Shown here: one piece after another, positions 5,260-58,151 of the stretch | Numbering within the stretch: position 1 is the first letter of the stretch | Layout of the letters: each line of letters starts with the position of its first letter | NCBI GenBank assembly: GCA_903913285.1 | Contig: CAIWKO010000060.1 | Coordinates: forward strand, 55,898-119,897 | Source of the DNA: an uncultured Bacteroidales bacterium | GTDB lineage: Bacteria > Bacteroidota > Bacteroidia > Bacteroidales > CAIWKO01 | DNA length: 64,000 bases | Direction of reading: 5' to 3' | The notes under the pieces: model-generated | What the model saw: the letters and a program-made list of their open reading frames with translations, nothing else | Told to the model about the DNA's origin: nothing | The model's database searches: none | Translations under genes and position numbers: made by a program

Positions 5260-5552
5260 TAAAGTAAAATTGGAAGCAGCTAAAGTAAAATTGGAAGCTT
5301 TTAAAGTAAAATTGGAAGCAATTAAAGTAAAATTGGAAGCCAAAAAAGCATTCTTGAACGAGTTAATACTAAAATTGGATGCATCTAAAGTAAAATTGGA
5401 AGGCACTGAAGTAAAATTGTAAGGCACTAAAGTGAAATTGCAACCTCATATGTATCCTGGAACACTGCTAAAGTCTTCTGGAAAGGTGCTAAAGTAAAAT
5501 TGCAGGCTGCTAAAGTAAAATTGCAAGCCGCTCACGCATTCTTGGAAGGCGG
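5260..5552 (+). repeat. 21-bp tandem array, consensus TAAAGTAAAATTGGAAGCNNN (~14 units)
   Basis: Units at 5260, 5281, 5302, 5323 ... 5490, 5511. One 20-nt unit (5449-5468) and several diverged units. Confidence 0.9.
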
Positions 5553-5708
5553 TTACGTGAGTCATATTTTTGACTCAAGTAATATTTCTTCCCAAAAAAG
5601 TAAAATTGCAACCAAAAATACCATTCCCGGAGCAAAACCTCAAAAACATCTCTGTGTCCCAATTTACTTGCTACCTGTTACCTTTTACCAGTTACCTGTT
5701 ACTTTAGT

Positions 5709-6872
5709 TCACTTCTTCAAAGGATGCGCGTACGTTATTACATCGTCGGCGGTTATTTTCTGGTCGCAGAGGATGATGAGGCGTTCGACGACGTTGCGCA
5801 GTTCGCGGATGTTGCCGGTCCATTTTATTTTTTGAAGTTGCTGCATGGCGTCGGGTTGAACTTTTAGCATAGGCCGACCCTGACTTTGACATATTTCGGC
5901 CACAAAATAATCGACCAGCAAGGGAATGTCGTCCATACGATCGTTAAGCGACGGGACTTCGATCAGGATCACACTCAAACGGTGATAAAGGTCTTCACGG
6001 AAAGTGTTTTTGGCGATTTCTTGTTCCAGATCTTTGTTGGTGGCAGCAATAACGCGAACGTTGACGGGAATATCTTTTTCGCCGCCGACGCGGGTGATCT
6101 TGTTTTCCTGCAAGGCACGCAGCACTTTAGCCTGCGCGGAAAGGCTCATGTCGCCAATTTCGTCGAGAAAGATGGTTCCGCCGTCGGCTTGTTCGAAATC
6201 GCCTTTGCGCTGTTTGATGGCAGAGGTGAATGAGCCTTTTTCGTGACCGAAAAGCTGGCTTTCGATGAGCTCGGAAGGGATGGCAGCGCAGTTGACCTCG
6301 ATGAAGGGATAGGAAGAGCGTTTGCTTTTTTCGTGGAGCCAATGCGCCACGAGTTCTTTGCCGGTTCCGTTGGCGCCCGTGATGAGAACACGAGCATCGG
6401 TTGGAGCCACGCGTTCGATCATGTCTTTGATGCGTTTGATAGCCATTGATTCGCCAATCATTTCCCAGTTTTTGCTGACTTTCTTTTTGAGAGCCTTGGT
6501 TTCGGTGATGAGTGTTGATTTGTCGAGGGCGTTTCGCAAGGTGATGAGCAAACGGTTGAGATCTAAAGGTTTCGCGATGAAATCGTAAGCGCCGAGTTTG
6601 ATGGATTCGACTGCGGTGTCGATATTGCCGTGACCCGAGATCATGATGACCGGGGTGTCTGTTTTTAGCATTATGGCTTTCAACACCTCGATGCCGTCCA
6701 TTTTCGGCATTTTGATGTCGCAAAGTATGACGTCGTATTTTTCTTTTTCGACGAACTGCAACCCTTCACTTCCGTCGCAGGCATCATCTACCTGGTATTT
6801 TTCGTATTCGAGAATTTCGCGTAGGGTGTTGCGGATGCTTTTTTCGTCGTCGATTACTAAGATCTTTGCCAT
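5709..6872 (-). CDS. Sigma-54-interacting response regulator (NtrC/NtrX-like; receiver + AAA+, no evident HTH)
   Basis: Receiver ILVIDDE/CDIKMP, Walker A GANGTGKE, ESQLFGHEKGSFTSA, LFLDEIG-like Walker B, FREDLYHRL and WTGNIRELRN. Confidence 0.92.
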   Translation of the reverse strand: MAKILVIDDEKSIRNTLREILEYEKYQVDDACDGSEGLQFVEKEKYDVILCDIKMPKMDGIEVLKAIMLKTDTPVIMISGHGNIDTAVESIKLGAYDFIAKPLDLNRLLITLRNALDKSTLITETKALKKKVSKNWEMIGESMAIKRIKDMIERVAPTDARVLITGANGTGKELVAHWLHEKSKRSSYPFIEVNCAAIPSELIESQLFGHEKGSFTSAIKQRKGDFEQADGGTIFLDEIGDMSLSAQAKVLRALQENKITRVGGEKDIPVNVRVIAATNKDLEQEIAKNTFREDLYHRLSVILIEVPSLNDRMDDIPLLVDYFVAEICQSQGRPMLKVQPDAMQQLQKIKWTGNIRELRNVVERLIILCDQKITADDVITYAHPLKK

Positions 6873-6989
6873 TGTTTAGGGGTTTAGCGGTTTAGCAGTT
6901 TAGCAGTTTAGACTATTAGATTTTAGGTTTAAGATTGAGAGTTTAAACTGTCGATTTTTTTCTTCTGAATTCTTACTTCTGAATTCTTA

Positions 6990-8666: not shown

Positions 8667-8684
8667 TATTTGAGAATATGATTA

Positions 8685-8721
8685 GCGCCCTTCGACTACG
8701 CTCAGGGTAAAATTAGTAATT
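8685..8721 (-). repeat. Dispersed REP-like element, copy 2 (inverted)
   Basis: GCGCCCTTCGACTACGCTCAGGGTAAAATTAGTAATT is the reverse complement of 4716-4752. Confidence 0.8.
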
Positions 8722-8849
8722 TGTGATTTGTGATTTTACAAAATTAAACAATTTTGGCGGGATTATCCTATTCGGTATTTTTATAAAGAGTAAACAGATG
8801 AAAGAATTCTTTCAGCATAAAACACGCAAAATTAAAGCACTCCGGGCAT

Positions 8850-10188: not shown

Positions 10189-10213
10189 GACTTTAATATT
10201 AAACAAATATACT

Positions 10214-27387: not shown

Positions 27388-28620
27388 CTATTTTTCTCTT
27401 ATTTGATTAAATATTTCACTCCAAGTCAATTGCTTTTCTTCGAGCAATGATTGAGTATATTCCATTACAACTTTTCTAATGAAAGAACCAATATTTACCG
27501 ACCTACTGGAAAGCACATTATATTCGTTCGTGAACTGAGTTAAGTTAAGTCCATTTTTTGTAATAGAATTATTCAACTTTTCGAAAACATCATTAGTTTG
27601 ACTGAAAACATTTTCTGGGTCTTGGAGGTTAATTTTCCTACCAATTGCTGCGAATATACCGCTAAGAGAAGTATCCTTAGAAAACCATTCTTTCCCTTTC
27701 GCGTCATTTATAGAAATCAATTTATCCAGCTCAAATAACTTATTTAAAAACAAGTCTAGGTATTCTTTACTAAAAACTATATCATATACTTTCTCTGGTG
27801 TTTCTTCACTATCAATAAATTCGTTTTCAATTAATTTGTCAGTTGATACTCTTAGTGGTTTGCCTTCCACTAGCGATTGTAGAGCTACTATAACGGAAGA
27901 AAACATAAACTGACCTAATTCTCTGATTCCCCTTTTTATATCGTTAGCATTTATATTTTTTTCTCTAAAAAGTTGTATTGGGGTATCAGAATTATTTATT
28001 GTTTCAAAATAATGAAGAAATAACAGCTCAAATTGGTGGGTCTTTGATACAGATTTTTGTCCTGCATTTAAGAGTAGCATTTTTTGAATTACTTCTTTCT
28101 CATTTAACCCAGTCCAAATGGTAAAATAAACATCATAATTGCTAAATCTTGATGGTATTTTCTCTATTTCATTTGTTTCAATTAATGATTTTATTAAACG
28201 AGTTGACATGACTCCTGAATCAAAAAATAATGGATTTATTTCCTTCAACTCTTTTGCAAAAGTTCTATAATCAGATTTTGTCTTAGAATATTGCTTTGAT
28301 GTGGCGAGATGAGCCCATAAGCGGAAAGACCGTTGAAGTCCATCTAAAATTTCAGTTTCAGACAAATCAAAAGAGACTTGATTATAATCTATTTCATTAA
28401 GTTTTGATTTTTTATATGTAAGTGTAATAGTAGGGATAGGGTCGCCTATCTGTATTGTTGAGTAGAGTTTGTCTAAATATTGATTTTTGACAATCCTTCT
28501 CTGAATTGCATACTCGTAGAAATCTATTTTCAAACCTTCTAAGTAATCTATTAATTTCCCTTTACATAGATACCAAGTCCTATGTTGGATTTCCTTTTTG
28601 TCTAGAATTTCTATTTCCAT
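27388..28620 (-). CDS. DGQHR/DndB/DUF262-like (ParB-superfamily) domain protein
   Basis: IQRRIV, GDPIPTITL, EILDGLQRS and MLLLNAGQKSV motifs. Confidence 0.7.
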   Translation of the reverse strand: MEIEILDKKEIQHRTWYLCKGKLIDYLEGLKIDFYEYAIQRRIVKNQYLDKLYSTIQIGDPIPTITLTYKKSKLNEIDYNQVSFDLSETEILDGLQRSFRLWAHLATSKQYSKTKSDYRTFAKELKEINPLFFDSGVMSTRLIKSLIETNEIEKIPSRFSNYDVYFTIWTGLNEKEVIQKMLLLNAGQKSVSKTHQFELLFLHYFETINNSDTPIQLFREKNINANDIKRGIRELGQFMFSSVIVALQSLVEGKPLRVSTDKLIENEFIDSEETPEKVYDIVFSKEYLDLFLNKLFELDKLISINDAKGKEWFSKDTSLSGIFAAIGRKINLQDPENVFSQTNDVFEKLNNSITKNGLNLTQFTNEYNVLSSRSVNIGSFIRKVVMEYTQSLLEEKQLTWSEIFNQIREK

Positions 28621-28886
28621 TTCGAATAGTTATTGATTTTTAGCTTGTAGGCAAAATTTGTATGAAACATTGATATAATTTTTATTCTACCTATTCAGTA
28701 GGTGCAATCCATGTATCCATTGGCCAAGTTTCCAAACTTCCCACAAAAATATTCTTTAGTTTCCAATCACATACAAATTTCACCTCAAATATATAAATTT
28801 ATTCGATTGAAAATTATTTTTTCAAAAAAAATCATATTATTTTCTCAAAAAAAAACAACGATTAAAGCTTTAAAAAACATAAAAGT

Positions 28887-29138
28887 CAAATTGAAAACAA
28901 CGATTATCAAAATCTGAACAATGGATTACAAAATCTGAACAACGACAATCAAAATTATGACTATGGATGACAAAAATATGACAATGGATGACAAAATCTG
29001 AACAACGACAATCAAAATTATGACAATGGATGACAAAATTATGACAATGGATGACAAAATGGAGTCAACGACGATCAAATTCTGAACAACGACAATCAAA
29101 ATTACGACAATGGATGACAAAATGGAGTCAACGACAAT
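28887..29138 (+). repeat. 21-bp tandem array A1 (CAAAAT-NNNNN-CAA-YGRNNAN type), 12 units
   Basis: Units such as CAAAATCTGAACAACGACAAT, CAAAATTATGACAATGGATGA and CAAAATGGAGTCAACGACAAT in exact 21-bp register. Confidence 0.92.
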
Positions 29139-29277
29139 CAAAATGTAAAAAATCAAAACAAAAAAACAAATCAAGTTGTTAATTATCAATATAATAATAA
29201 ATAAGTCAACCAATTTACTTCTTAACAAATTAACCAACGAACTCAAAAATCACACCCCTAAAACAAAAATAACAACA

Positions 29278-29550
29278 CACTACCTCGTCCGAACGACACT
29301 TCACCTCGTCGGAACGACTACGTTTCTCGTCCGAACGACACTATTCCTTCTCCGGACGACTCTGTTCCTCTTCCGAACCGCACTATTCCTTCTCCGGACA
29401 ACACTATCCCTTCTCCGGACGACACTATCCCTTCTCCGGACGACACTATCCCTCTTCCGGACGACACTATCCCTTCTCCGAACGACTCTGTCACTCGTCC
29501 GAACGACTCTGCACCTTTTTCAGACTACATCAAACCTTTTTCAAACAACA
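29278..29550 (+). repeat. 21-bp tandem array B1 (CTATCCCTTCTCCGGACGACA type), ~13 units
   Basis: Continuous 21-bp register; translates as LSLLRTT heptads in ORF 29176..29628. Confidence 0.92.
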
Positions 29551-29839
29551 TCAAACATCTTCCGGGTCATCCTTTATATCACCTCGCTCATAGCTTTTTA
29601 TCCCGTAACCACCGGAATACATCTCTAAACTCTTATCATTTTCTGTAGCCCTTCGCCGAATATTCTGCCCGATTATCTTATTCCTTATCATCTTGCCGTT
29701 TCTTAACACACTATAGGATTGTTTTTATAAAAAAACATCCCTGGCTATCATCTTTTAAAAATAATTAAAAAACTTTTCACCGCTTAAATCGTTGTTTTTA
29801 TGATTATTCACTACTGTGCGAAACAGATTAATGAAATTA

Positions 29840-29884
29840 TTTTAGTACTTTGTATTGCATAGTACTAAAAATGTATTATCTTTG
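29840..29884 (+). promoter_or_regulatory. Bacteroidota primary-sigma promoter overlapped by a palindromic putative PadR operator
   Basis: TTG (29855-57)-N19-TATCTTTG (29877-84); dyad TTTTAGTACT-TTGTATTGCAT-AGTACTAAAA covers the -33 element. Confidence 0.7.
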
Positions 29885-30121
29885 TCCCCGAAATGATAAA
29901 ACGATCTTCAGATCAAAATTTTAAAATGGCTCTAAGTTTAATTTTTAATAGTGTTGGTAATAAAGTGAAACGTGTTGAGAATCATCTGCGCCTTATCTCA
30001 GAGGATAGGATGATTTTCAGCGGCTTCACCCTTTAGGGAAGGGGAAAAAAGACGTTGAAAATCAATTAAAAGTCATTTGGAAAGAACAACAAACAACAAA
30101 CGACAAACAAACAACAACAAA

Positions 30122-30457
30122 ATGGATATCGAAAACTCAAAGGCCCAGATGCGAAAAGGTGTGTTGGAGTATTGCATACTCTCCATCATATCCGAAAAGG
30201 ATGCCTACGCATCCGACATCATGGAAAAACTGAAAGAAGCCAAACTCATCGTGGTGGAAGGCACGCTCTATCCCTTGATGACACGCCTGAAGAACGACGG
30301 CTTGCTCAACTATCGCTGGGAAGAATCAAAAAGTGGCCCCCCGCGCAAATATTATCAACTCACCGACGACGGACGCAAATGCCTCTCCGATCTCGACGAA
30401 AGCTGGAACGAGTTGGTTGATTCGGTTAAACATATCACTCAAAAAAATAATTCATAA
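30122..30457 (+). CDS. PadR family transcriptional regulator
   Basis: QMRKGVLEYCIL, VEGTLYPLMTRL and GPPRKYYQLT; ATG at 30122. Confidence 0.95.
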   Translation: MDIENSKAQMRKGVLEYCILSIISEKDAYASDIMEKLKEAKLIVVEGTLYPLMTRLKNDGLLNYRWEESKSGPPRKYYQLTDDGRKCLSDLDESWNELVDSVKHITQKNNS

Positions 30458-30469
30458 AACATCATAGCC

Positions 30470-32257
30470 ATGAACAAAACAATATCAATTAACATAGGCG
30501 GTTTATTTTTTCAGATCGATGAACAAGCATACATCATCCTGGAAAACTATCTTGACTCCCTAAAAAAACATTTCGCAGGCACCGAAGGCAGCGAAGAGAT
30601 CATTCAGGACATCGAATCTCGTATAGCCGAAATATTTCAAACCCGCATCGAAGCCGGAAACGTTATGATTACCCTCGAACACGTGGAAGAAACCATAAAG
30701 ATACTGGGCAACCCGGGCGATATCGACAACAACAGCCCCGAAAAAGAAACCAAAAAAGAACACAAACGCTTTTCACAGAAACGTTTGTTCCGCGACGAGG
30801 ACAACCGGGTGCTGGGCGGTGTATGTTCCGGATTGGGACATTATCTTGATGTCGACCCCGTTTGGTTTCGTCTGGGGTTTGTTATAGCCCTCTTGTTTTT
30901 CGGCTCGAGTATATTAATATACCTGGTGTTGTGGATCATCATCCCCAAAGCCGACAGCACCGAAGATAAAATGCACATGAAGGGCGCACCGATGACCATC
31001 AAGGAAATAGAAAACAATATCAAAGAGGAGTTCGAAGATCTGAAAACCCGTTTCCACGACATGCGCGGCCACACCCGAAGACGCACACGCAGAGAAATGC
31101 ACGAACTAAAACGCAAGATACATCAGGCAAAACACGAAGCCAAGTATTCATATCGTCAGTGCTATGTAGCTTCAGCAGTGGCAGCAGGCAAAAAACCCGA
31201 ACACATGCATCATCATGGCTTTGGAAGCGTGTTTGGCGAAATATTTTACTATCTGCTTCGCGCCCTGCTGATATTTGCTGGCATTGTTCTGCTCATCGTT
31301 GCTATTATTTTAACGGGTTCGCTTGTGCTTTCGCTCACGGCATCCGATAGTTTCGTGCTGTTCACCAAATGGGGCATATCGTCGGTTTCTGTTCCTGCTC
31401 TTTCTAACCTGTTTTTCGAAAACCAATGGCAGCAGCAACTTACTGTTATCACCCTTCTGCTGCTGATAGGCGTTCCTTTGCTGATGCTCATCTTCAACAG
31501 CATCCGTATGATAATCGGATTCAAGACCAAGCATCGTATCATCTCCATAACCGCCTCGCTTATGTGGCTCACGGGTTTGATCATAGCCATTTTTCTCACC
31601 ATTAACATCGTCGGCAATTTCAACGAAAAGACTTTTGTAAAGACAGAGGTCGTTTTGCCACAGCCCCGGAAAACCCTCACCATCGATATAACCGATAATT
31701 TGCCGGGCATACGCACAACAACTGTGAACGACGAAGAAAACGATGAAAGCAATGTGCAGAACCATCAGCATTTTATCTTCAACAACTGCTTCTTTTCTGA
31801 ACACAATGACAAACTCATCGCTTACGGTTTCCCAAAACTTAAGATCGTTGCTGCTTCCGGCGGAGAATATAAACTTACGGTGATAAAATTCGCACGGGGC
31901 ACCAGCCTGTTGAGCGCACGCCATAGAGCCGAAGCAATAAAAGCAGATGTTGCCACACCCGATTCAACTTTGTTCATCAACAATTATTTTGTGCTCCCGT
32001 TCAACGAAAAATGGCGCAACCAATCGGTGAAACTCCTGCTCGAAGTGCCCGAAGGGAAGAGTATTTTCCTGACCGGCAACGTAGAAAATCTGGTTTACGA
32101 CAGCAATTACCTCGACGGAAGCTGGAACACGGATATGATTGGCAAAAAGATGACGATGCACAACGGCATTTTGGTTGAAGACAGACAATTGCCAGTTAAA
32201 ACAGACAGCGTACCTGCAAAAAAACCGGTGCAAAAAAGACTTCTGCCTAAAAAATAA
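30470..32257 (+). CDS. PspC domain-containing membrane protein
   Basis: MNKTISINIGG..F.IDE.AY N-terminus; RLFRDEDNRVLGGVCSGLGHYLDVDPVWFR PspC motif; several TM helices. Confidence 0.92.
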   Translation: MNKTISINIGGLFFQIDEQAYIILENYLDSLKKHFAGTEGSEEIIQDIESRIAEIFQTRIEAGNVMITLEHVEETIKILGNPGDIDNNSPEKETKKEHKRFSQKRLFRDEDNRVLGGVCSGLGHYLDVDPVWFRLGFVIALLFFGSSILIYLVLWIIIPKADSTEDKMHMKGAPMTIKEIENNIKEEFEDLKTRFHDMRGHTRRRTRREMHELKRKIHQAKHEAKYSYRQCYVASAVAAGKKPEHMHHHGFGSVFGEIFYYLLRALLIFAGIVLLIVAIILTGSLVLSLTASDSFVLFTKWGISSVSVPALSNLFFENQWQQQLTVITLLLLIGVPLLMLIFNSIRMIIGFKTKHRIISITASLMWLTGLIIAIFLTINIVGNFNEKTFVKTEVVLPQPRKTLTIDITDNLPGIRTTTVNDEENDESNVQNHQHFIFNNCFFSEHNDKLIAYGFPKLKIVAASGGEYKLTVIKFARGTSLLSARHRAEAIKADVATPDSTLFINNYFVLPFNEKWRNQSVKLLLEVPEGKSIFLTGNVENLVYDSNYLDGSWNTDMIGKKMTMHNGILVEDRQLPVKTDSVPAKKPVQKRLLPKK

Positions 32258-32282
32258 ATGATCTTGCTTTTTTCATTGTTCG

Positions 32283-32316
32283 AACAGCCATACAGTAATG
32301 TGTGGCTGTTTTTTTT
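32283..32316 (+). terminator. Rho-independent terminator
   Basis: AACAGCCATACA-GTAA-TGTGTGGCTGTTTTTTTT. Confidence 0.8.
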
Positions 32317-32329
32317 GGAACTGTTGCTC

Positions 32330-32968
32330 CTACTCCCTGCTCAAAAACGGCCTGAACTCTTTCGACTCCTTGACACGTCGGGCAATTTCAATAAAATCGC
32401 CTATCCGATACATCTCAAGGTTCTCCTTAAGTTCAAGCTTTATCAGTATCACATTGCCAAACAACATCGACAGGTCATCATCCAGGTTGAGATCAACAAT
32501 AATTTTTGAAATTTGTTCTATCGACGTAAACCGAACGTTCAGTTTGGGATCGGAATAATCTCTCGGAAGGTTTTTCGATTCGCGGGCCACAAGTTTCTCG
32601 ACCGACATCTCTCCCAACCCTATCAAATGTTTCTCACCGTCGGGCGAACGCATAAACACAGAGTCGTTTCCATAATTATGATACCTGACGACCTCGCTGT
32701 TCATGTATTGTTTATACACTTTCAGGCTATCGATAAGTTGTGCAAAAGTCCAGTCTTCAATTTTTACATTATCTTGCATCTTGCCCACGATATATTCACC
32801 CATAAGCTGAGAATCATATTTCGACATCAGTTTTTTTTCCAACAGTTTATGAATGATATCAGGGCTGTTCTCCGAAACTTTTGTTCGCAACAGTTCTTCT
32901 GCAGTTTGAGCAAAAAGCCCAACGGAGATAAACAGAAAGAAAAATGTAAGACTGAAATATTTTATCAT
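32330..32968 (-). CDS. Secreted hypothetical protein
   Basis: Signal peptide; 212-aa ORF co-oriented with the upstream ligase. Confidence 0.7.
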   Translation of the reverse strand: MIKYFSLTFFFLFISVGLFAQTAEELLRTKVSENSPDIIHKLLEKKLMSKYDSQLMGEYIVGKMQDNVKIEDWTFAQLIDSLKVYKQYMNSEVVRYHNYGNDSVFMRSPDGEKHLIGLGEMSVEKLVARESKNLPRDYSDPKLNVRFTSIEQISKIIVDLNLDDDLSMLFGNVILIKLELKENLEMYRIGDFIEIARRVKESKEFRPFLSRE

Positions 32969-33004
32969 AGTTTTAGTTTTAATGCAGATTAGGAGTCTGA
33001 GAAA

Positions 33005-35062
33005 CTATTTCTCGATCCGTATACGTGCATCAACAGCCACCACTTTATCGGCATTACCCAGCAAAGGATTCAGATCAAGTTCCCTTATTTCAGGAGCAAC
33101 CTGCAACAAAGCAGATAAACGCATGATAATATCGGCAAGTATATTTTGGTCGATGCCTTTTTGTCCGCGAACGCCTTCAATAATTTTATAGCTTTTCAGG
33201 CTTTTGATCATCGTCATGGCTTCGGCTTTCCCAATTGGCGACAAACCTGCCGAAACATCTTTCAACACTTCGATAAAAATACCTCCCAAACCAAACAATA
33301 TCATGTGCCCGAATTTAGCTTCGAAGTTGGCTCCCACAAAAAGTTCCGTTCCGCTCAGCATAGGCTGTATCAATATGGCAGTAGTTTCTTTTATCTGTAT
33401 CATGCGTTCGAATTCGCGTTCCACTGTTTCAATGTTTTTCACATTCAGCACCACTCCACCCACATCCGATTTATGAACCGGACCAACCACTTTCATCACC
33501 ACCGGGAATCCCAAACGTTGCGCTTCTGCTTTTGCCGTTTCTTTATCGGTTACCACAGCTTCGCCTGTACGGGGAATGCCCGCAGCATCCAACAATGACT
33601 GGATCTCTGCCGGAGAAATATATCCTTCGGCAGTTCCATCGATAATCGAACGGATCTTCACAGTATCAACCTGAGGTAATGTAGGAACTTCTTCGAAAGG
33701 TTTGGCTGTATAAAACACCTTCACCAAAGCCTTAGCCAACACCACTTCATCGGGGAAGTTGATGCGGTCTTTGGATAGAAAATCGTTCACCTCTTCACCG
33801 GCAGTTAAAGTAGATGGCAATACAGGGAATATAGGTTTTAAGGCCGTTTTCATTTTTGCATCCAGCACAGTATAAACATCAAAAAGTTTGAACAAGCCGG
33901 GTGTTCCGAAAATGACGATCATGGCATCTATATCATCAAATCTTTGGTCAACATAATCGATTATGGTTCCCAGTTGTTCTGCAGTTCCTGTTGCCAGAAA
34001 ATCGATAGGATTTGCTACCGATGAACCCGGAAACAACTTGGTGAGCAGTTCTTTGCTTGCAGGAGAATCAATATGGGGAACGTCTAATCCTCCATTCGAT
34101 AGGGCATCGGTACACATCACAGCGGGTCCGCCGGCATGGGTAATAATAGCAAGACGTTTGCCCTTCAGTTCGGGATGCATGAACACCGAAGCAACACTGA
34201 TAAGATCTTCGCGCCCGATGCAACGAACTATACCTGCCTTGCGGAACAATGCATCTACTGCCACATCAGAACTTGCCAAAGCACCAGTATGTGAAGAAGC
34301 CGCCCGCGAACCTGCATCAGACGAACCGGCTTTTATGGCCGCTATCCTGCATCCTTTCCGGATCAGCGACGAAGCATGTTTCAATAGCTTCTGAGGTTTT
34401 GAAATGTTCTCGATATACAGCAGTTTCACCCGTGAACTTGTTGCAGGGTCGAATGAATTGTCGAGATATTCGAGCAATTCTTCCACGCCAAGCTGAGCAC
34501 TGTTCCCAACAGAAAACACATTTGCAAACGTAAGCCCGTTGGGGATACCCGCTTCCATAATAAAACAAGCCGTAGCGCCCGAACCTGAAATAAAATCACA
34601 TCCCTGGGGTTCGAGTTTGGGAATAGGATACGTAAAGATGCTGTGATGCGAGGGTGTGAGGATTCCAGTGCAATTGGGTCCTATCAGGCATCCACCGGTA
34701 CTGTTTATGGTGTCTACAATTTGTTTTTCGAGTTCCGCACCTTCTTTGCTTTCTTCACTGAAACCTGCTGAAAGTATGATAAATGCTTTTGTTTCTTTTT
34801 TTCGGGCAAGAATCTCGACCGTCTCGGGTATTAATTTCGCAGCAATGGCAATAATTGCCAGATCAACCTGAGGCATTTCGTTGATATCCTGAAAACTTTT
34901 TATTCCCTGAACTTCGGGTTCTTTCAGATTTGTAACATACAAATGACCGGCAAAATGTCCGTCTATCAAATTCTTTAATACTTTTCCGCCCGGTTTGGTT
35001 ATTTCGTTCGAGCCACCCACAACCACAATGCTACGGGGATTTATCAGAAAATTGTTCACCAT
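33005..35062 (-). CDS. Acetate--CoA ligase (ADP-forming) family protein, fused alpha/beta
   Basis: PRSIVVVGGS, LSAGFSE, IGPNC.G, AASSHTGALA, NPIDF, HKSDVGGV and ELDLNPL...VAVDARI. Confidence 0.93.
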   Translation of the reverse strand: MVNNFLINPRSIVVVGGSNEITKPGGKVLKNLIDGHFAGHLYVTNLKEPEVQGIKSFQDINEMPQVDLAIIAIAAKLIPETVEILARKKETKAFIILSAGFSEESKEGAELEKQIVDTINSTGGCLIGPNCTGILTPSHHSIFTYPIPKLEPQGCDFISGSGATACFIMEAGIPNGLTFANVFSVGNSAQLGVEELLEYLDNSFDPATSSRVKLLYIENISKPQKLLKHASSLIRKGCRIAAIKAGSSDAGSRAASSHTGALASSDVAVDALFRKAGIVRCIGREDLISVASVFMHPELKGKRLAIITHAGGPAVMCTDALSNGGLDVPHIDSPASKELLTKLFPGSSVANPIDFLATGTAEQLGTIIDYVDQRFDDIDAMIVIFGTPGLFKLFDVYTVLDAKMKTALKPIFPVLPSTLTAGEEVNDFLSKDRINFPDEVVLAKALVKVFYTAKPFEEVPTLPQVDTVKIRSIIDGTAEGYISPAEIQSLLDAAGIPRTGEAVVTDKETAKAEAQRLGFPVVMKVVGPVHKSDVGGVVLNVKNIETVEREFERMIQIKETTAILIQPMLSGTELFVGANFEAKFGHMILFGLGGIFIEVLKDVSAGLSPIGKAEAMTMIKSLKSYKIIEGVRGQKGIDQNILADIIMRLSALLQVAPEIRELDLNPLLGNADKVVAVDARIRIEK

Positions 35063-35203
35063 TCTTCTTAAATTTTAGTGCGCTAAGGTAAAAAAATACT
35101 TTTTAACAAGATACTATGTTGAAAACAAAAATAGCCGGGCTTTTTTTGAAAACAGCAAATTACTACTTTTACACCCTGAAACTTAGATTTTAAAATTTCT
35201 GAC

Positions 35204-35488
35204 ATGCCAAACAACAAAAAGAAGAAAAAAATAAAATACAAAAAGTTTGAGTTTAAACTTTCAGTAAAACAAAAAAATCTCATCGATAAGTTCTGCAGGG
35301 CAAAAAAAGTTAGCCCGAATAAGATGATAAAGTCCGCTATCAAAGATTATATCCGTAAATTTGCCGATTCGTTACCTGAAGAAGACTATATCAGCGAAAA
35401 TCAGTTATGCCTGTTTGATGTTGAAGAAGATATTGAGAATTATGAAATGGCTGAAAAACAGGAAGAGTTTAAAACCACATTATTCTGA
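35204..35488 (+). CDS. Small hypothetical protein (basic N-terminus, acidic C-terminus)
   Basis: 94-aa ORF in an intergenic gap upstream of grpE on the same strand. Confidence 0.65.
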   Translation: MPNNKKKKKIKYKKFEFKLSVKQKNLIDKFCRAKKVSPNKMIKSAIKDYIRKFADSLPEEDYISENQLCLFDVEEDIENYEMAEKQEEFKTTLF

Positions 35489-35547
35489 CAAAATGTCGCA
35501 TAAGTAATACTGGCAAAAAATTTGATTACCCCAAATTCAATTTGATT

Positions 35548-36120
35548 ATGAAAACAAAGAAAACTATGTCGAAGGAACACGAAGAAAAGAAACATGCAGA
35601 AAGCAAAGCCGAAGGAAAAGAAGAAGTGACTTCAACAGATGATTTCCCATGCGACGGCACTGAAAAAGACGAATTGATCCTGATACAAAAAGCCAAGATC
35701 GACGAACTCAATGACAAATATTTACGCTTATATGCCGAGTTCGACAACTATCGCAAACGAACGATAAAAGAGCGTTTAGAAATGAGCAAAACTGCCGCAG
35801 CCGATGTTATTTCATCCATGCTTCCGGTTTTGGATGATTTGGAACGCGCCATTAATGCCATGCCCGATGAGGAAGCTAACAAAGCTCTGAAAGAAGGCAT
35901 TGTACTGATCTACAACAAATACAAATCCATTTTAACAAAAAACGGACTGGAAGAGATTAAGTCAATTGGCGAAGTGTTCAATACAGATATCCATGAGGCT
36001 ATTGCAAATGTACCTGCAGAAAATGAAAAGATGAAAGGCAGAATCATTGATCAGGTTGAAAAAGGATATTACCTGAACGGAACTATGCTCCGTTTTGCTA
36101 AAGTGGTTGTAGCTAATTAA
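35548..36120 (+). CDS. grpE: Nucleotide exchange factor GrpE
   Basis: LRLYAEFDNYRKRT, LPVLDDLERA and GYYLNGTMLRFAKVVV. Confidence 0.96.
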   Translation: MKTKKTMSKEHEEKKHAESKAEGKEEVTSTDDFPCDGTEKDELILIQKAKIDELNDKYLRLYAEFDNYRKRTIKERLEMSKTAAADVISSMLPVLDDLERAINAMPDEEANKALKEGIVLIYNKYKSILTKNGLEEIKSIGEVFNTDIHEAIANVPAENEKMKGRIIDQVEKGYYLNGTMLRFAKVVVAN

Positions 36121-36209
36121 AGTCCAAATTTGGTAGACTCCAAATACTTGTTGATCAAAAATACCCGATAAGAAATATAATTAAATTGTAATACCAGATA
36201 CCAAAATAG

Positions 36210-37355
36210 ATGACCAAACGTGACTACTACGAAATACTTGGAGTTTCGAAAAATGCAGAAGATTCTGAGATCAAAAAAGCCTATCGGCAGTTAGCCTTAA
36301 AATACCATCCCGATAAAAACCCGGACGATAGTGCAGCTGAAGAAAAATTTAAAGAAGCTGCCGAAGCTTATGATGTATTGAGTAACCCTGAAAAAAAGAG
36401 TCGTTATGACCGTTACGGTCATCAGGGACTTGGAAATTCTTCAGGATTTGGCGGAGGCGGTATGAGCATGGATGATATTTTCAGCCATTTTGGCGATATC
36501 TTCGGAGGGGCATTCGGAAATTTTGGCGGATTCGGCGGAGGACAATCGCAACGCAGGAAAGTAAATTACGGTAGCAACTTACGTGTTAAAATAAAAATGA
36601 CACTGGAAGAGATTTCTGCAGGAGTAGAAAAAAAGATCAATGTCAATAAAAATGTTAGCTGTAAAGAATGCAGCGGAACAGGTGCAAAGAACGGAAGCTC
36701 GTTCAAAACATGTTCAACCTGCGGAGGACGCGGACAGGTGAGCCGTGTTACCAATACATTCCTCGGCCAGATGCAGACAACCTCTGCTTGCCCTACATGC
36801 GGCGGCGAAGGTCAATCCATCACTGAAAAATGCACTTCGTGTTTCGGCAACGGCATTGTAAAAGGCGATGAAGTGATCAGTATAAAAATTCCCGCAGGAG
36901 TTGCTGATGGCATGCAGCTTTCGCTTAGCGGAAAAGGAAATGCAGCAGCACGCGGCGGGCAACCCGGCGATCTGATCGTACTGATTGAAGAAATGGAACA
37001 CGCCGAGCTGATTCGCGATGGAAATAATTTATTGTATACCCAATATATCAGCTTCCCCGATGCAGTAATGGGAACTTCGGTTGAAATACCCACCCTGGAA
37101 GGAAAAGCACGAGTAAAGATTGAAGCAGGTACACAATCGGGCAAAATTCTTAAACTAAAAAACAAAGGATTACCTTCACTGAATTCATACGGGCGCGGCG
37201 ATCTGTTGATAGGTATCAACGTCTGGACACCACAAACCCTCACGAAAGAAGAAAAGCACATCATCACAAACCTGATGACTTCTGAAAACATTAAACCTCA
37301 TCCGGGAGCCAAAGACAAGAACTTCTTTGAAAAAATGAGAGAATTTTTCCAATAA
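36210..37355 (+). CDS. dnaJ: Chaperone DnaJ
   Basis: J-domain with HPD, G/F-rich region and four CxxCxGxG repeats. Confidence 0.98.
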
Positions 37356-37366
37356 TCAACACAAAA

Positions 37367-38323
37367 ATGAATCTATTAGAAACCAGGAACATCACCAAAC
37401 GATACGCGAATCATCTTGCCTTAAACAACGTTTCCATCAGTGTTCCTCCCCAAAGTATTTATGGTTTGCTGGGCCCGAATGGTGCTGGAAAGACCACCCT
37501 CATCCGCATCATCAATATGATAACCTCCCACGACGAAGGCGAGATATTTTTGAACGGAGAAAAACTTCTTCAGAATCATATCGAACAGATCGGATATCTG
37601 CCCGAAGAAAGAGGCTTGTACAAAAAGATGAAAGTTGGCGAACAGGCTTTGTATTTTGCACAATTGAAAGGCTTATCGAGAACAGATGCCCTTAAAAAAC
37701 TTAAATTCTGGTTCGAAAAGTTTGAGATCGCAGCATGGTGGAACCGCAAGGTTGAAGAACTTTCGAAAGGCATGCAGCAAAAAGTTCAGTTTATTGTTAC
37801 TGTGCTGCACGAACCCAAATTGTTGATTTTCGACGAACCGTTCAGCGGATTCGACCCCATTAACGCCAACATTATAAAAGACGAAATATTCCGCCTCAGA
37901 GAGAACGGAGCTACCATTATCTTTTCCACCCACAATATGTCGTCGGTTGAAGAACTTTGCGATAATATTGCACTGATAAACAAAGCAAATAAAATCCTGG
38001 AAGGCAAAGTAAAAGAGATCAAGAACACGTATAAGAACAATGTGTATCACGTTGAACTCGCAGGATACAACCAGATACTGAAAGAACATCTTAACCACGA
38101 TTATCTGATTGAAGAAGAAATTCATGATGATGAACTGCTGAAAGCAAAGATCAGAATATTGAATAGCAGTTCAACCAACGATATGATTCAAACTCTTATG
38201 AAATTTGGGAATATTCATGCCATTCAGGAAATCATCCCTACCATGAATGACATTTTTATCGCGAAGGTTAACAATGATTCCATTCATCTCAACACCTCTT
38301 CAAATTCAAATTTAACAGAATAA
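37367..38323 (+). CDS. ABC transporter ATP-binding protein (NatA-like)
   Basis: GPNGAGKTT, IGYLPEERGLY, LSKGMQQK and DEPFSG. Confidence 0.92.
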   Translation: MNLLETRNITKRYANHLALNNVSISVPPQSIYGLLGPNGAGKTTLIRIINMITSHDEGEIFLNGEKLLQNHIEQIGYLPEERGLYKKMKVGEQALYFAQLKGLSRTDALKKLKFWFEKFEIAAWWNRKVEELSKGMQQKVQFIVTVLHEPKLLIFDEPFSGFDPINANIIKDEIFRLRENGATIIFSTHNMSSVEELCDNIALINKANKILEGKVKEIKNTYKNNVYHVELAGYNQILKEHLNHDYLIEEEIHDDELLKAKIRILNSSSTNDMIQTLMKFGNIHAIQEIIPTMNDIFIAKVNNDSIHLNTSSNSNLTE

Positions 38324-43437: not shown

Positions 43438-44475
43438 TTAATAGTCAATATTATAATAATCTTTCAGGTATTTTTTCGAAGTTGCATCGCCCAAATCGGC
43501 TGCTTTTTTCCAATCAGCTATACATAAATCCTTTTTTTTCTGTATCCAATATACGCTTCCCCGGTTGTTGTATGCAATTGCATATTTTGGATCGATGCTT
43601 ATTGCTTTCGTAAAATCAGCAATTGCCAGATCATATTTCTCAAGCTTGCGATAACAGAGCCCAATAGAAACATATACGTCTGCTTGCTGCGATTTTATTT
43701 TCAACGAAGCATTATAATCGTTCATGGCAAGGTCGTAATTTTGCTGGTGATAATAAACAAGTCCTCGGTTATAATAAGCATCTGAATTATCAGGGTTTAT
43801 TTTTAACGATGCGGTATAATCTTCAATGGCATGATTATTATCATTTAGCTTATAATAAGCCAGACCTCTGTTGTAAAATGCATCTGTATAATTCGGGTCG
43901 AGCTTTATGGCAAGAGTATAATCGGCTATGGCAGTTTGATATTCACCTTTGTAATAATTTGCTAAACCCCTGCTGTAATAGGCATCTGTGTATTGAGGAT
44001 TTATTCTTATGGCCTTATTATAATCGGCTATTGCAGTTTCGTAATCACCTTTTTTACGGTAGCAAAGCCCGCAGTTATAAATTGCTTGAGCATCTCCGGG
44101 ATTTAAAATCAGAGCCGTATTAAAATCAGCTATTGCAGTAGAATAGCTTTCCTGATAATAATATGCCAGCCCTCGATTAAAATAAGCATCCTCATATTTA
44201 GGGTTTATCTTTATAGCATCGGTATAATCTTTTATAGCCGATTCATAATTAGCAAGCTTGAAATAGGCCAGACCTCTATTGTATAAAGTATTTTCATCCT
44301 TCGGATCACTCAAAAGCACCTTATTATATTGTTCAATAGCCGATTTATAATTACCATCTTTATAATAGGCAAGCCCTTGTTTGAACGCTGTGCTTATATC
44401 CTGCGAATAACCGTTTTGCACAAAAGCACTTAGAATAAAAATGCTGAAGCTTAAAAGACATAATTTTCTTTTCAT
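43438..44475 (-). CDS. Tetratricopeptide repeat protein, secreted
   Basis: Signal peptide plus about 9 repeats of AYYNRGLAYY..Y..AIADY..AIKINP. Confidence 0.92.
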   Translation of the reverse strand: MKRKLCLLSFSIFILSAFVQNGYSQDISTAFKQGLAYYKDGNYKSAIEQYNKVLLSDPKDENTLYNRGLAYFKLANYESAIKDYTDAIKINPKYEDAYFNRGLAYYYQESYSTAIADFNTALILNPGDAQAIYNCGLCYRKKGDYETAIADYNKAIRINPQYTDAYYSRGLANYYKGEYQTAIADYTLAIKLDPNYTDAFYNRGLAYYKLNDNNHAIEDYTASLKINPDNSDAYYNRGLVYYHQQNYDLAMNDYNASLKIKSQQADVYVSIGLCYRKLEKYDLAIADFTKAISIDPKYAIAYNNRGSVYWIQKKKDLCIADWKKAADLGDATSKKYLKDYYNIDY

Positions 44476-46295: not shown

Positions 46296-46566
46296 GATTT
46301 GCTTATAAATTACTTAACAACCAAAAATTATCAATTAGAACTTGGTTATAACAAAGATATAATTTTTTCAAAAACAAATCCTTAATAATTTATTATTTGG
46401 GTTGAGGTAACATGATTTTAATTAATTGCACGCAACGGGATACGCAAGCGAGCAGTGTGAAGTATGTTTTAATGTCAACGACAATAGCTTTCAGAAAAAC
46501 ATAAATCATTTTACAATAACAATTTTGAATCAAAAGCAACCATAAAAACTAAAAAAACGCTAAAGT

Positions 46567-46650
46567 CAAATTTAGAACAACGAAGTACAAAATCTGAACA
46601 ACCAAGTACAAAATATCGACAATGAAGTACAAAATGAAGTCAACGACAAT
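46567..46650 (+). repeat. 21-bp tandem array A2 (4 units), homologous to array A1
   Basis: CAAATTTAGAACAACGAAGTA, CAAAATCTGAACAACCAAGTA, CAAAATATCGACAATGAAGTA, CAAAATGAAGTCAACGACAAT. Confidence 0.85.
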
Positions 46651-46864: not shown

Positions 46865-47305
46865 CATCGTGAACGAGAAATATGACATCGTGAATAAGAA
46901 TTACGACATCGTGAATAAGAAATATAACATCGTGAATAAGAAATATGACATCGTGAATAAGAAATATGACATCGTGAATAAGAATTACGACATCGTGAAT
47001 AAGAAATATAACATCGTGAATAAGAATTATAACATCGTGAATAAGAATTATGACATCGTGAATAAGAAATACGACTGTGTGAATAAGAAATACGACTTCG
47101 TGAATAAGAATTATGACATCGTGAATAAAAATTACGACATCGTGAATAAGAAATATGACATCGTGAATAAGAAATATGACATCGTGAATAAGAAATATAA
47201 CATCGTGAATAAGAATTATAACATCGTGAATAAGAATTATAACATCGTGAATAAGAATTATGACATCGTGAATAAGAAATACGACTGTGTGAATAAGAAA
47301 TACGA
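46865..47305 (+). repeat. 21-bp tandem array B2 (CATCGTGAATAAGAAWTAYRA), 21 units
   Basis: Uninterrupted 21-bp register; translates as IVNKKYD heptads. Confidence 0.97.
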
Positions 47306-47519
47306 CTTCGACGATTTTAGTTACTATTACAACCCCATTCGGCAGCAAGCTCCGCCTCCTTTGGCTTATTTATGCCATCCGTGGCTTGTGGCTACAAATA
47401 AACAAACCCGGCATCAAATTCCTTACTTTCAGGAAAATAATATTCAATTTTGTGCGTTTTCTAAAAGAATAAACGCCATAACTTTTATTAAATAATTGCC
47501 AAATCAAAACTATACTCCG

Positions 47520-48161
47520 TTGAAAACGTTTTGCCTGTTGTTTCTGTTATTCTTTTTGGCGACACCTCCCGTCAAATCGCAGAACAAAGCATTTATTGCC
47601 GGTGCATTTATTGGGTTTTACGGAATTGAGATCAAGGGCCAGATAAAAGATATGTATTCTCCCGGAAAAATTTCAGGGAAAGGCGGATTTTCTTTTGGGT
47701 TTAATGTAAAACGCGACTTTTCTAAAAAGTTTTACGGTGCTCTTGAAATGCGCTATATCCAGAAAGGAAGCATCAATACTATCATAACCTACGCAGGAAG
47801 CCAATCGTGGGAAGCCATTCATCTCGGCTATATTGAAGTCCCTTTATCTGTCGGACTTAAGATCAAATTAAAAAAGAAACAACTTTATTTCGAATCAGGG
47901 CTTGCTTATGCCCGAATGATCATTTCAAAAATGATGTTGAGTCCTTCAAATTATTGGGACTGTTCGGCAAAGATCAATAATTTCAAACGCAACGACATTT
48001 CGTGGGTGGCCGCTCTCAAATATCCTATTCTAAAAAATGAGAAGTTAGTGCTTGGGCTTCGGTATTCATATTCACTGTTTACAATTCATTCGTTATACAA
48101 ATTATATAATATGGACTACGGTATTGAACTGTATTATTTGTTTAACCGGAATGTAAAATAG
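47520..48161 (+). CDS. Outer-membrane beta-barrel protein (PorT-like)
   Basis: Signal peptide, ALEMRYIQKG, LGYIEVPL and GLRYSYSL motifs. Start uncertain (TTG 47496 or 47520). Confidence 0.75.
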   Translation: MKTFCLLFLLFFLATPPVKSQNKAFIAGAFIGFYGIEIKGQIKDMYSPGKISGKGGFSFGFNVKRDFSKKFYGALEMRYIQKGSINTIITYAGSQSWEAIHLGYIEVPLSVGLKIKLKKKQLYFESGLAYARMIISKMMLSPSNYWDCSAKINNFKRNDISWVAALKYPILKNEKLVLGLRYSYSLFTIHSLYKLYNMDYGIELYYLFNRNVK

Positions 48162-54767: not shown

Positions 54768-54843
54768 ATCTTTTGGCCGAAGATCTGCAATTATTCGCAG
54801 CAGGGAAGCGTTATTTTGTTTAATTTTATTCAACAATTTTTTT

Positions 54844-55470: not shown

Positions 55471-55473
55471 CCC

Positions 55474-56070: not shown

Positions 56071-56172
56071 CCTTTTAGTCTTTTAGGTGTGTAGACTTTT
56101 AGGTAATAGGTAACAAGTAATAGTTATAGTCTTCGGTCTTCCAACTTCTAACTCCTAACTTTTAACTTTAGG

Positions 56173-56283
56173 CACTTTAGGCACCTGCCCGACTGAAGCC
56201 GTTCAGGCGGGCTTTAAGTACTTTAGTTCACTTTAGGCACCTGCCCGACTGAAGCCGTTCAGGCGGGCTTTAAGTACTTTAGT
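56173..56283. repeat. 56-bp tandem duplication with REP-like hairpin CCTGCCCGACTGAAGCCGTTCAGGCGGG, embedded in heptamer repeats
   Basis: 56173-56228 and 56229-56283 are identical over 55 bp; flanked by ACTTTAG-type heptamers. Confidence 0.9.
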
Positions 56284-56292
56284 CACTTTAGT

Positions 56293-57327
56293 TCACTTCT
56301 TCAACTCTTCCAATTCTTTCTCCAGCGATAAAATGCGGTCGGCGAGGTTTGGGAGTTTGCGGAACAGCACATACGAGCGTAAAAAATCTTTAATATCGAA
56401 AGCTATATAGCCCTGCAACAGCGCTCCTTCTTCGGTCACGGTTTTGGCAACTCCCGAGCGTGCCTGAACTTTCACATTATCGGCTATCGAAATATGCCCC
56501 ACTATGCCAACCTGCCCGCCTATCATGCAGTTTTTGCCGATCTTCACCGAGCCTGCCACACCCACCTGAGCCACGATGATGGAATTTTCGCCCACTTCAA
56601 CATTATGAGCTATCTGTATCAGGTTATCGAGTTTGCAGCCTTTGTGTATGATGGTCGAGCCCAGGGTGGCACGGTCGATGCAGGTGTTGGCGCCAATTTC
56701 AACATCATCTTCAATAATAACGTTGCCTATTTGGGCCACTTTTTTATGAGTCAGGTCGGCTTGCTGGGTAAAACCGAAGCCGTCGGCGCCTATCACCACC
56801 CCCGAATGCAAAATGCAGTTGCGCCCCACCACGCTGTCCGAATAAACGCTCACCTGTGCATACAGCGTGGTGTTGTCGCCTATGCTAACGTTGTCGCCCA
56901 CGTAGCTCAGCGGGTAGAGTTTGGCGTTGTTGCCTATAACGGCATTTTCGCCCACGAAAGCCTGTGCACCTATATACACGTTGCTGCCTATTTTGGCCGA
57001 AGGCGAAATGTAAGCCTTGTCCGAAATGCCCGTTTTGTTGAGTTTCATCTGATTGTATAGCTCCAGCAAGGTGGCGAAAGCAGCATACGCGTTGTCAACG
57101 CGCACCAGGGTAGCCTCAACGGGGTGTTCGGGCACAAAATCGCGGTTCACTATAACAATGGCGGCCCGGGTGGTGTATATAAAATGCGTGTAGGCAGGGT
57201 TGGCCAAAAATGTGAGCGAATCCTCATCGCCTTCTTCTATTTTGGCCAGTTTCGAAACGGCTGTTTCGGGCTTGCCTTCTACGGTGCCGTTCAATACTTC
57301 GGCCAGTTGTTGCGCGGTAAATTTCAT
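56293..57327 (-). CDS. lpxD: UDP-3-O-(3-hydroxymyristoyl)glucosamine N-acyltransferase
   Basis: LTFLANP.Y, hexapeptide repeats, [19 protein letters not shown] and [11 protein letters not shown]. Start ATG 57327. Confidence 0.97.
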
Positions 57328-57790
57328 TTCAGCTATATTTTTTTCAGAAAACAAAGTTATAAAAACAACGACAAGTGGGAGGATTTATTTTTGATGGAGA
57401 AATTTTTAGAGAATTCAGAATTCAGAAGTAAGAATTCAGAAGGATTGAATTAGCTAAAAGCCATTACTTCCTACTTTTTTAACCACGGAAATACGGAGAA
57501 CACGGAGATACACAGAGAATTTATTTTGCATTCAAAAAAATTATTTTATTTTTTTAACAAAAAACTTGCATCACTTAAAATAATTTACGTTCTTTGTGTA
57601 TCATAAATTAAACCATATAAACCCGATGATCTATCGTTCTGATATATCATGTTCCGAAAGGCCTATTTCCGTAGGGGGGGGGGTATTTTATGGTTTTAGA
57701 TTCCAAATCTTTTTGTTTTAGTTCGTTTTTATTTCAAGAAATTTCTTTAAAATTTATTTATAGTCCATTTTCGACTGGAAGTGAAAACTA

Positions 57791-58151
57791 TTCGCACGAG
57801 TTGGGAAAGGGTTCGCACGGCCAAGGAAAGGGTTCGCACGGCCGGGGAAAGGGTTCGCACGGCCAGAGAAATGGTTCGCACGGCCGGGGAAATGGTTCGC
57901 TCACGGGACGATATGGTTCGCTCGTAGAACGATACCGTTCGCACGACCGGGGAAAGGGTTCGCACGACTCAGGAAAGGGTTCGCACGACTTGGGAGACCT
58001 CCGCACGACCAAGGAAAGAGTTCGCACGACTGAGGAAAGGGTTCGCACGGCCAAGGAAAGGGTTCGCACGAGTTGGGATGCCTCCGCACGACCGGGGAAA
58101 GGGTTCGCACGGCTGAGGAAAGGGTTCGCACGAGCCGGGAAAGGGTTCGCA
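57791..58151 (+). repeat. 21-bp tandem array TTCGCACG-N5-GGAAAGGG, 17 units plus a partial
   Basis: Conserved 16-nt core GGAAAGGGTTCGCACG with a variable pentamer (AGTTG, GCCAA, GCCGG, GCCAG, ACCGG, ACTCA, ACTTG, ACCAA, ACTGA, GCTGA, AGCCG); two 20-nt units. Confidence 0.96.

Follow-up and report, generated by a model that had tools for sequence, protein, structure and literature searches.

Tandem arrays of constant 21-bp period and variable sequence lie upstream of a gene superfamily in Bacteroidales

What holds the unit length of a tandem repeat constant when the sequence of the unit is free to change? The question is raised by a 64-kb stretch of DNA from an uncultured Bacteroidales bacterium (contig CAIWKO010000060.1, positions 55,898 to 119,897; hereafter the window, numbered from its first letter), in which the original prediction, made from the letters alone, had placed six tandem arrays in a 21-bp register with five different unit types. 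We located the window arrays with Tandem Repeats Finder (TRF), taking their context from lists of open reading frames (ORFs) and from direct inspection of the sequence. All six were recovered at their predicted places with period 21, and the count of five unit types was upheld: the arrays at 28886 and 46563 form one family and the other four units differ. One array, at 57791-58151 (17.3 copies of a TTCGCACGACCGGGGAAAGGG-like unit), is followed by a 102-bp AT-rich stretch (58152-58253, + strand) and then by a gene for a protein of 322 amino acids (aa) (58254-59222, + strand), which belongs by its N-terminal domain to a superfamily that we name SF-N. This array is the array part of an array-then-SF-N-gene module; the other five window arrays are not adjacent to SF-N genes.

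Period 21 dominates the source genome (G000, a freshwater Bacteroidota of 3.996 Mb in 70 contigs), the whole of which we ran through TRF. Sorted by shortest period, 238 of the 597 repeat clusters fell at 21, compared to 31 at period 18, 15 at period 20, 13 at period 22 and 7 at period 24, so that the census gave the enrichment over 18, 20 and 24 that had been anticipated; many clusters scored best at 42, 63 or 84. Clusters with a period-21 row number 271 and add up to 46.7 kb, or 1.17% of the genome. Among the 99 arrays with at least 8 copies and a period of 13-30, 97 have period 21, and the enrichment of this period is far beyond chance. Arrays of at least 4.5 copies number 146 (3.65 per 100 kb). 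Array length peaks at 250-275 bp, the upper tail being cut by the assembly, as arrays occur at contig ends. By contrast, requiring identity at no fewer than 15 of 21 positions splits the 143 arrays that have a 21-nt consensus into 89 unit families, with 71 related unit pairs compared to 7 for shuffled units and with 30-130 bp of flank in common between related arrays. It is the period and not the sequence that is conserved, as had been proposed. Array DNA has a GC content of 41.6%, compared to 31% for other intergenic DNA. In G000 there is a further excess of clusters at period 7 (58) and period 14 (42), and we considered whether the 21-mers are built from heptamers; this was rejected, as their circular self-identity at lag 7 is 0.267, compared to 0.265 for shuffles. 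Exact two-copy duplications, which we had considered as evidence of a bias at the birth of arrays, were dropped: none of the seven 21-bp cases survived stricter masking, and those of 14 bp each consist of two related heptamers.

The arrays have a genetic partner. We clustered the 3279 ORFs of G000, called with an in-house greedy ORF caller and not a gene finder, by all-against-all BLASTP and scored the families that flank arrays with the hypergeometric distribution. Two families led, F523, with 14 of 20 members flanking an array (p 8e-12), and F288, with 12 of 18 (p 6e-10), and F807, F96 and F1512 came next. A hidden Markov model (HMM) of a common N-terminal domain of ~220 aa joins F523 and F288 into one superfamily, SF-N, which we define by an HMM of this N-domain only; a wider superfamily of 74 members was rejected, being contaminated by proteins with the CarboxypepD_reg domain alone in common. 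Thirty-three of the 39 SF-N genes in G000, which mostly encode proteins of 300-405 aa, have a 21-bp array no more than 700 bp upstream, against a background of 254 of 3279 ORFs with an upstream array. The unit differs from gene to gene, and in 29 cases the array reaches at least 4.5 copies. In nearly all cases, 60-400 bp separate the array from the gene downstream of it. Upstream arrays were also found for 5 of 7 members of F807 and 9 of 17 members of F96, and 3 of the 39 SF-N genes have an upstream 7/14-bp array. A search for gene families and contexts around the arrays, as outlined with the original prediction, thus returned enriched families in G000, and the association extends to other genomes of the order.

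Within the genus, represented by 18 species genomes, TRF was run on sampled DNA of the relatives of G000. Arrays of at least 4.5 copies occurred at 4.7 per 100 kb in G023, 3.1 in G025, 3.4 in G004, 2.4 in G022, 1.7 in G010 and, from 38 kb sampled, 7.9 in G011. No arrays were found in the samples of G009 (382 kb), G006 (103 kb), G007 (64 kb), G002 (80 kb) and G021 (62 kb); G003 gave no period-21 array in 19 kb, a sample too small to judge. A profile of 21 SF-N N-domains (alignment A1), searched in whole genomes, had 41 matches in G000, 27 in G004, 26 in G005, 22 in G011, 19 in G010, 16 in G023, 14 in G025, 13 in G022, 10 in G003 and 6 in G008, the last with one array in 120 kb, and no match in G007, G009, G002, G006, G001, G021, G012 and G024. 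All seven sampled array-rich genomes of the genus therefore have SF-N and the five array-free samples have none, and in the genus the distribution of SF-N matches that of the arrays in every genome measured for both. In single-protein searches, F807 and F96 were present in nine SF-N genomes of the genus, G008 not being among them. The physical link recurred as well: in the sampled DNA, 3/3 SF-N genes of G023, 3/3 of G025 and 1/1 of G004 have an upstream 21-bp array. Beyond the genus, G015, a genome of another family without SF-N, had one 21-bp array of at least 4.5 copies in 400 kb (C26:1-400000), where its preferred periods are 10, 11 and 22 with 6 clusters each.

Across the order, the SF-N domain was found in 38 of 201 sampled genomes. 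We ran TRF on the 1.2 kb upstream of 40 SF-N genes from 17 other genomes in 15 families, which revealed an array of period 19-23 upstream of 27 genes and period 42 alone in 2 more (29/40). These arrays comprised 27 with period 21, 2 with period 20, 1 with period 22 and 3 with period 42, every one with a unit of its own, and 12 of the 17 genomes had at least one array-bearing SF-N gene. In a second set of 20 SF-N genes, examined with a less sensitive repeat search, 8 had at least 4 copies at 21-bp spacing. We conclude that the arrays are tied, physically and by co-occurrence in genomes, to SF-N, F807 and F96, and that the array-then-SF-N module is old and common to families of the order.

What, then, are the arrays for? 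The reading we prefer, at a probability of roughly one half, is that they are a period-constrained cis element upstream of SF-N genes which has also spread to other intergenic sites. The period appears to be under constraint because the unit sequences are randomised and yet their length is kept, and helix register offers itself as the explanation because it is the sole property that depends on length alone. The core module consists of an array of ~8-14 units, 60-400 bp of AT-rich DNA and an SF-N gene, with the same layout for F807 and F96. As the repeat length matches two helix turns, such an array would line up about a dozen similar sites along the same side of the DNA; these sites may load a protein cooperatively, either the neighbouring SF-N protein or a general nucleoid protein, and thereby set transcription of the downstream gene. 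Slippage or unequal exchange would keep the units of an array alike; copying would take in an array, its gene and short flanks, after which the array would change more quickly than the protein; and in the G000 lineage arrays would have spread to ~100 other intergenic sites.

Several observations weigh against this reading. Six of the 39 SF-N genes in G000 and 11 of the 40 in other genomes have no upstream array of this type, and conversely 109 of the 146 arrays precede no gene of SF-N, F807 or F96; the genes downstream of these other arrays are a generic mix with a modest enrichment of one large family (19/153). Among the 109 intergenic arrays that we could classify, 23, including the window array at 5260, lie between convergent genes with no adjacent start. 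The units themselves share little: expectation-maximisation over rotations and strands found no hidden shared motif (information content 7.6, compared to 6.9-7.3 for shuffles), phasing of AA/TT, A-tracts or other A/T-only dinucleotides at 10.5 bp, which would have pointed to selected curvature, was not above shuffles, and the excess of palindromes is weak (arms of at least 5 in 23 units, compared to 13 expected). The tetramer GGAA/TTCC occurs in 51 of 143 units against 22 expected, a figure inflated by related arrays, and is absent from most units. The two-helix-turn argument has no explanation for the 7- and 14-bp arrays that occur in genomes having 21-bp arrays. Finally, the genomes of the genus are related by descent, which makes their co-occurrence counts non-independent; contigs of G023 and G025 were drawn from heptamer-repeat matches, and draft assemblies can lose repeats.

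A period divisible by three invites the explanation that the units encode seven-residue protein repeats. An ORF of 249 aa does span the window array at 46865-47310, and 16 of the 146 arrays of G000 lie in short ORFs. These short ORFs, however, are mostly the array itself, and at 46865-47310 a frame is open on the opposite strand too, as any stop-free 21-mer would lead one to expect; we read the 249-aa ORF as a by-product of such a unit. None of the window arrays lies inside a long ORF. Frames are broken by stops, as in 28886-29150, and by 20-nt units, as in 57791-58151, where the frame changes and a TRF score also at period 83 implies at least one 20-nt unit; the argument against coding that had been drawn from such stops and short units is sustained by the whole genome. 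Although 89% of G000 is ORF by our caller, 122 of the 146 arrays are intergenic and a further 8 overlap an ORF end. The arrays of G000 are non-coding, and we regard coding heptads as very improbable.

The main rival of a constrained cis element is that the arrays are selfish or neutral minisatellites, a founder 21-bp repeat having spread as array-plus-flank cassettes with an SF-N gene sometimes as passenger, so that the period is inherited and not selected, and the arrays would be of no use to the cell. The 109 of 146 arrays that are not next to SF-N, F807 or F96 would then be the rule, and the patchy distribution of arrays and genes fits as well, as do the small families of related arrays with 30-130 bp of common flank; BLAST of flanks across arrays revealed such small families only and no universal flank. 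The arrays also avoid start codons, like tolerated insertions: of 56 arrays in tandem spacers, just one has its end less than 60 bp from the next start codon, a placement that also speaks for a cis element. Turnover of the units proceeds at about neutral speed. In the orthologous spacer of G023 and G025 (FeoB, small membrane protein, array, response regulator) there is a 21-bp array whose unit is unrelated to that of the window array at 5260, and at 3 of 5 syntenic loci G000 also has a 21-bp array, with unit similarity at noise level. The turnover of units, which is evidence for the constrained cis element too, is also seen within G000: SF-N paralogues with 86% identical N-domains have units that match at only 13 of 21 positions, and the mean unit match is 11.5/21 for paralogue pairs of at least 50% identity, compared to 9.5 for distant pairs, from which it follows that arrays duplicate with genes and then diverge faster than the proteins.

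Flanks of 7 of the 25 testable G023 and G025 arrays (5 loci) are syntenic in G000, compared to 36 of 70 random positions; this is a comparison of raw counts, its control positions drawn from coding and intergenic DNA alike. The location of arrays at or in accessory gene blocks, suggested by the window, thus stands as a modest tendency, weaker than first claimed. An insertion sequence (IS)-like element with near-identical ends (..TATAAAGTAGATTGTGTAAACAGG..) was noticed at, among other places, C5:42874, C27:52858, C26:66756, C29:110 and 12891, C43:14230 and C4:128348; it is collapsed in the assembly, as 13 of its 15 ends lie within ~130 bp of a contig end. Eight or nine of the 15 ends directly adjoin a 21-bp array, each with a different unit, which suggests that the element inserts at array edges, and its presence beside arrays would suit selfish or neutral DNA. 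Against such an origin, neutral indels should have scattered the period, yet, with unit sequences randomised between species and between families of the order, it is exactly 21 in 97 of 99 long G000 arrays and in 27 of 40 TRF arrays (period at least 10) upstream of SF-N genes elsewhere, and the position of the array upstream of one gene family is kept across 15 families of the order. Moreover, no terminal inverted repeats or target duplications were noticed in the inspected flanks of aligned family members, a search that was not systematic. On balance we consider a selfish or neutral origin unlikely, though it is the strongest of the competing explanations.

Less probable again is that the arrays act as repeat RNA, transcribed as a 5' leader or a separate non-coding RNA whose units serve as a platform or sponge for an RNA-binding protein. 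The TAnnTTTG motif (the Bacteroidota -7 motif) occurs between array and start codon in only 6 of 26 modules, and not within 58152-58253 of the window; because it is rare there, the promoter may often lie upstream of the array, where the 200 bp before the array contain the motif in 8 of 26 modules. In the modules, the DNA ahead of the start codon is rich in A and poor in G, and the 52-nt repeats of Bacillus coagulans are reported to be transcribed (PMC8625621; PMC8161180). A fixed length of 21 nt, on the other hand, has no obvious meaning for single-stranded RNA, and four concatenated units fold only slightly better than shuffles (mean z -0.28). Nor is the skew of the arrays oriented relative to the flanking genes. 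This skew had been described as a strong strand bias, a description that does not survive comparison with random intergenic 21-mers, in which the median absolute skew is no smaller (AT 0.25, compared to 0.20 in arrays; GC 0.33, compared to 0.20). Rfam 15 gave no match at gathering score across the window.

If the arrays are instead the period-constrained cis element that we favour, the SF-N paralogue is, judging by gene order, a candidate for the cognate protein of the array directly upstream of it, a partner that the original prediction had allowed for each array type. An AlphaFold2 model of the N-domain of the window protein is a confident helical bundle (predicted local distance difference test score, pLDDT, 91.8), and the SF-N N-domains of alignment A1 are 9-21% identical to it. 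At its C-terminus the window protein has a CarboxypepD_reg-like immunoglobulin (Ig) domain (PF13620, E 3.8e-07, below the curated cut-off), and an Ig domain of this type stands at the C-terminus of many SF-N proteins. By a crude rule, 5% of SF-N proteins have signal-peptide-like N-termini, compared to 34% genome-wide, and SF-N proteins appear from their sequences to be cytoplasmic. The N-domain, F807, F96 and F1512 match no named family in Pfam, NCBIfam or PHROGs; clusters of the ESM Atlas place the window protein in Bacteroidota with the label 'hypothetical protein' only, and tblastn with one N-domain against phage and plasmid records gave no match. It counts against a DNA-binding role, and with it against the reading we prefer, that no DNA-binding fold is recognisable in the N-domain, a plain helical bundle without a specific structural relative: compared to solved structures the model had no Foldseek match at E <=0.001, and the best VIA Z score, 10.2, came from partial helical bundles and is below the meaningful level for helical proteins. 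A further candidate for an array binder is the F1512 protein (86 aa), which precedes the array and the SF-N gene in a three-part cassette seen at G000 C45:141527-143529, C43:46703-48663 and C66:69318-70565.

In the most specific form of this idea, each SF-N paralogue would bind DNA and polymerise on its own 21-bp array, giving dozens of private protein-array pairs per genome; N-domain divergence would then match unit divergence, and orphan arrays would be landing pads that are either abandoned or supernumerary. We hold such private pairing to be doubtful. It has a parallel in the iterons of theta-replicating plasmids: these direct repeats, each spanning about two turns of the helix, adjoin the gene for the Rep protein that binds them, and their sequences vary between systems while the spacing is kept, in about 3-7 units. 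The arrays resemble iteron-Rep systems in being two-turn direct repeats that adjoin a gene, free in sequence and fixed in spacing, with binding only putative in the SF-N case; they differ in numbering dozens of modules per chromosome and in having 8-20 units against about 3-7. SF-N shows no Rep-type family or winged-helix signal, and searches of Pfam, NCBIfam and PHROGs returned no Rep family for F807 and F96.

Repeats of constant size and variable sequence are not new, and the original prediction erred in calling the system undescribed. Subirana and Messeguer (PMC8161180) described non-coding tandem repeats in bacteria whose size is constant (20-21 or 52 nt) and whose sequence varies, with several families per species and species-specific sequences, abundant in a few species of several phyla and of unknown function; noting that 20-21 nt equals two helix turns, they proposed a protein polymerising on DNA, or small RNAs. 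The window arrays belong to this kind. They share with it a unit length held at 20-21 nt, non-coding location, multiple unrelated families per genome and an uneven distribution between related species. They differ in occurring in Bacteroidota and in density, which at 146 arrays in 4.0 Mb is ~5 times that of the richest Bacillus listed, where Table 4 gives 22-29 repeats of 20-21 nt (at least four repeats) in 4.4-5.5 Mb (PMC8161180); G000 is by far the densest case among those compared. They differ also in that no short sequence recurs in most G000 units, unlike the signature in Table 2 of that report, and in being tied to a downstream gene superfamily, a feature absent from the parts of that description cited here. 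In the passages that our literature search covered, we found no report of 21-bp arrays linked to a gene family, though supplementary tables may list gene contexts.

Two other repeats invite comparison, as far as the cited parts of their descriptions go. BrickBuilt is a MITE (a miniature transposable element with inverted repeats) of Porphyromonas gingivalis that carries a 23-nt minisatellite of one unit sequence and is present in 19 copies, with a leader, a tail and inverted-repeat ends; it has reported promoter activity and is always intergenic, 49-591 nt from neighbouring genes (PMC4596501). Like BrickBuilt, the arrays are multi-copy intergenic Bacteroidota minisatellites with about two helix turns per unit; unlike it, they have ~89 unit families, period 21 instead of 23, no common leader or tail that we could find, and a link to gene families. 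Heptamer direct repeats of TAACTGA, known from Beggiatoaceae, cyanobacteria and five Bacteroidetes, are uniform in sequence and sit no more than a few nucleotides away from start codons (PMC4679880). The arrays are likewise short intergenic direct repeats, sporadic across lineages and often before starts, in a genome that also has 7/14-bp arrays, but their 21-nt unit is without self-similarity at lag 7.

The remaining window arrays, listed by TRF without a strand, illustrate the range of contexts. The array at 5260-5440 (8.6 copies, 74% matches, TAAAGTAAAATTGGAAGCAGC-like unit) is flanked by the ORF of a small membrane protein (4766-4945, + strand) and the stop of a response-regulator gene (5709-6872, - strand), and a short continuation of its unit family follows at 5483-5532 (2.4 copies). 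Upstream of this region, directly after the FeoB stop codon, is a heptamer array, (GGAAGAC)n, at 4564-4686 (17.7 copies), a member of the 7/14-bp repeat class; comparable heptamers are found after FeoB in G023, and the GGAAGAC motif matches many loci in G003, G005, G023 and G025. The array at 28886-29150 (~9.8 copies, CAAAATCTGAACAACGACAAT-like unit) has a higher-order structure, with TRF scores also at periods 42, 63 and 84, and a conserved A-rich flank after it that extends to about 29249. Together with the short array at 46563-46635 (~3 copies, with an A-rich flank as at 28886), G000 C45:141975 and C18:51130, it constitutes family A, found by BLAST, whose four members, aligned by eye, have a common conserved last unit and A-rich flank; the copy at C45:141975 lies upstream of an SF-N gene. 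The array at 29283-29507 (10.7 copies, CCTCCTCCGAACGACACTATC-like unit) lies 569 bp upstream of a gene at 30077-30457 (+ strand) and has a relative, by BLAST, at G000 C13:30173-30426, and the array at 46865-47310 (21.2 copies, 90% matches, unit CATCGTGAATAAGAAATATGA) is followed after 185 bp by the gene of an outer-membrane beta-barrel protein (47496-48161, + strand; Pfam PF13568). Relatives of the array at 57791-58151 were found at G000 C67:52126-52557 and C6:29030-29504. A CRISPR (short palindromic repeats, clustered and regularly interspaced) array was considered and rejected, as the window units abut head to tail at 21-bp spacing with no unique spacers.

Contigs of four DNA runs compared to window positions 28001-38000 gave no indel rows; contigs built with short words end at or near arrays, which makes copy-number variation unreadable. 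In run X5, from a related strain of another study, contigs replace window positions 29870-30139 with other letters, and one contig diverges from the window upstream of 29839, the side that holds the array at 29283-29507, which hints that the spacer near 29839-30139 differs between strains; stretches that X5 leaves uncovered are not taken as evidence. A stretch of ~225 bp ahead of the array at 57791 (57499-57723) has counterparts in G000 at C4:49423-49646 (89% identity), where it precedes an F96 gene, and at C26:47332-47522 (83%); it could be a promoter region common to these loci, or a small RNA. A GC-rich hairpin (CCTGCCCGAC...GGCGGGC) in a 56-bp unit repeated 2.3 times at 56165-56291 occurs also as a perfect 21-bp array of three copies at G000 C9:66094-66155 and in the flanks of other arrays, and may be an element like repetitive extragenic palindromic (REP) sequences. 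TRF also reported a 102-bp repeat of 1.9 copies at 43864-44052 (74% matches) and, just downstream of the SF-N gene, a 77-bp repeat of 1.9 copies at 59267-59409 (93% matches).

Repeats of fixed size and free sequence, which carry neither a function nor an associated gene in the cited parts of the earlier description (PMC8161180), have here a concrete genetic partner. Arrays and gene families co-occur in the genus, and the sister species with neither are natural controls. For annotators, the arrays are a caution that ORFs called across them are probably not genes. If the private protein-array pairs were real, they would be a chromosomal counterpart of the iteron-Rep pairs of plasmids, and the constant-size repeats of several phyla would turn out to be lattices on which fast-evolving cognate proteins bind, their period set by two turns of the helix.

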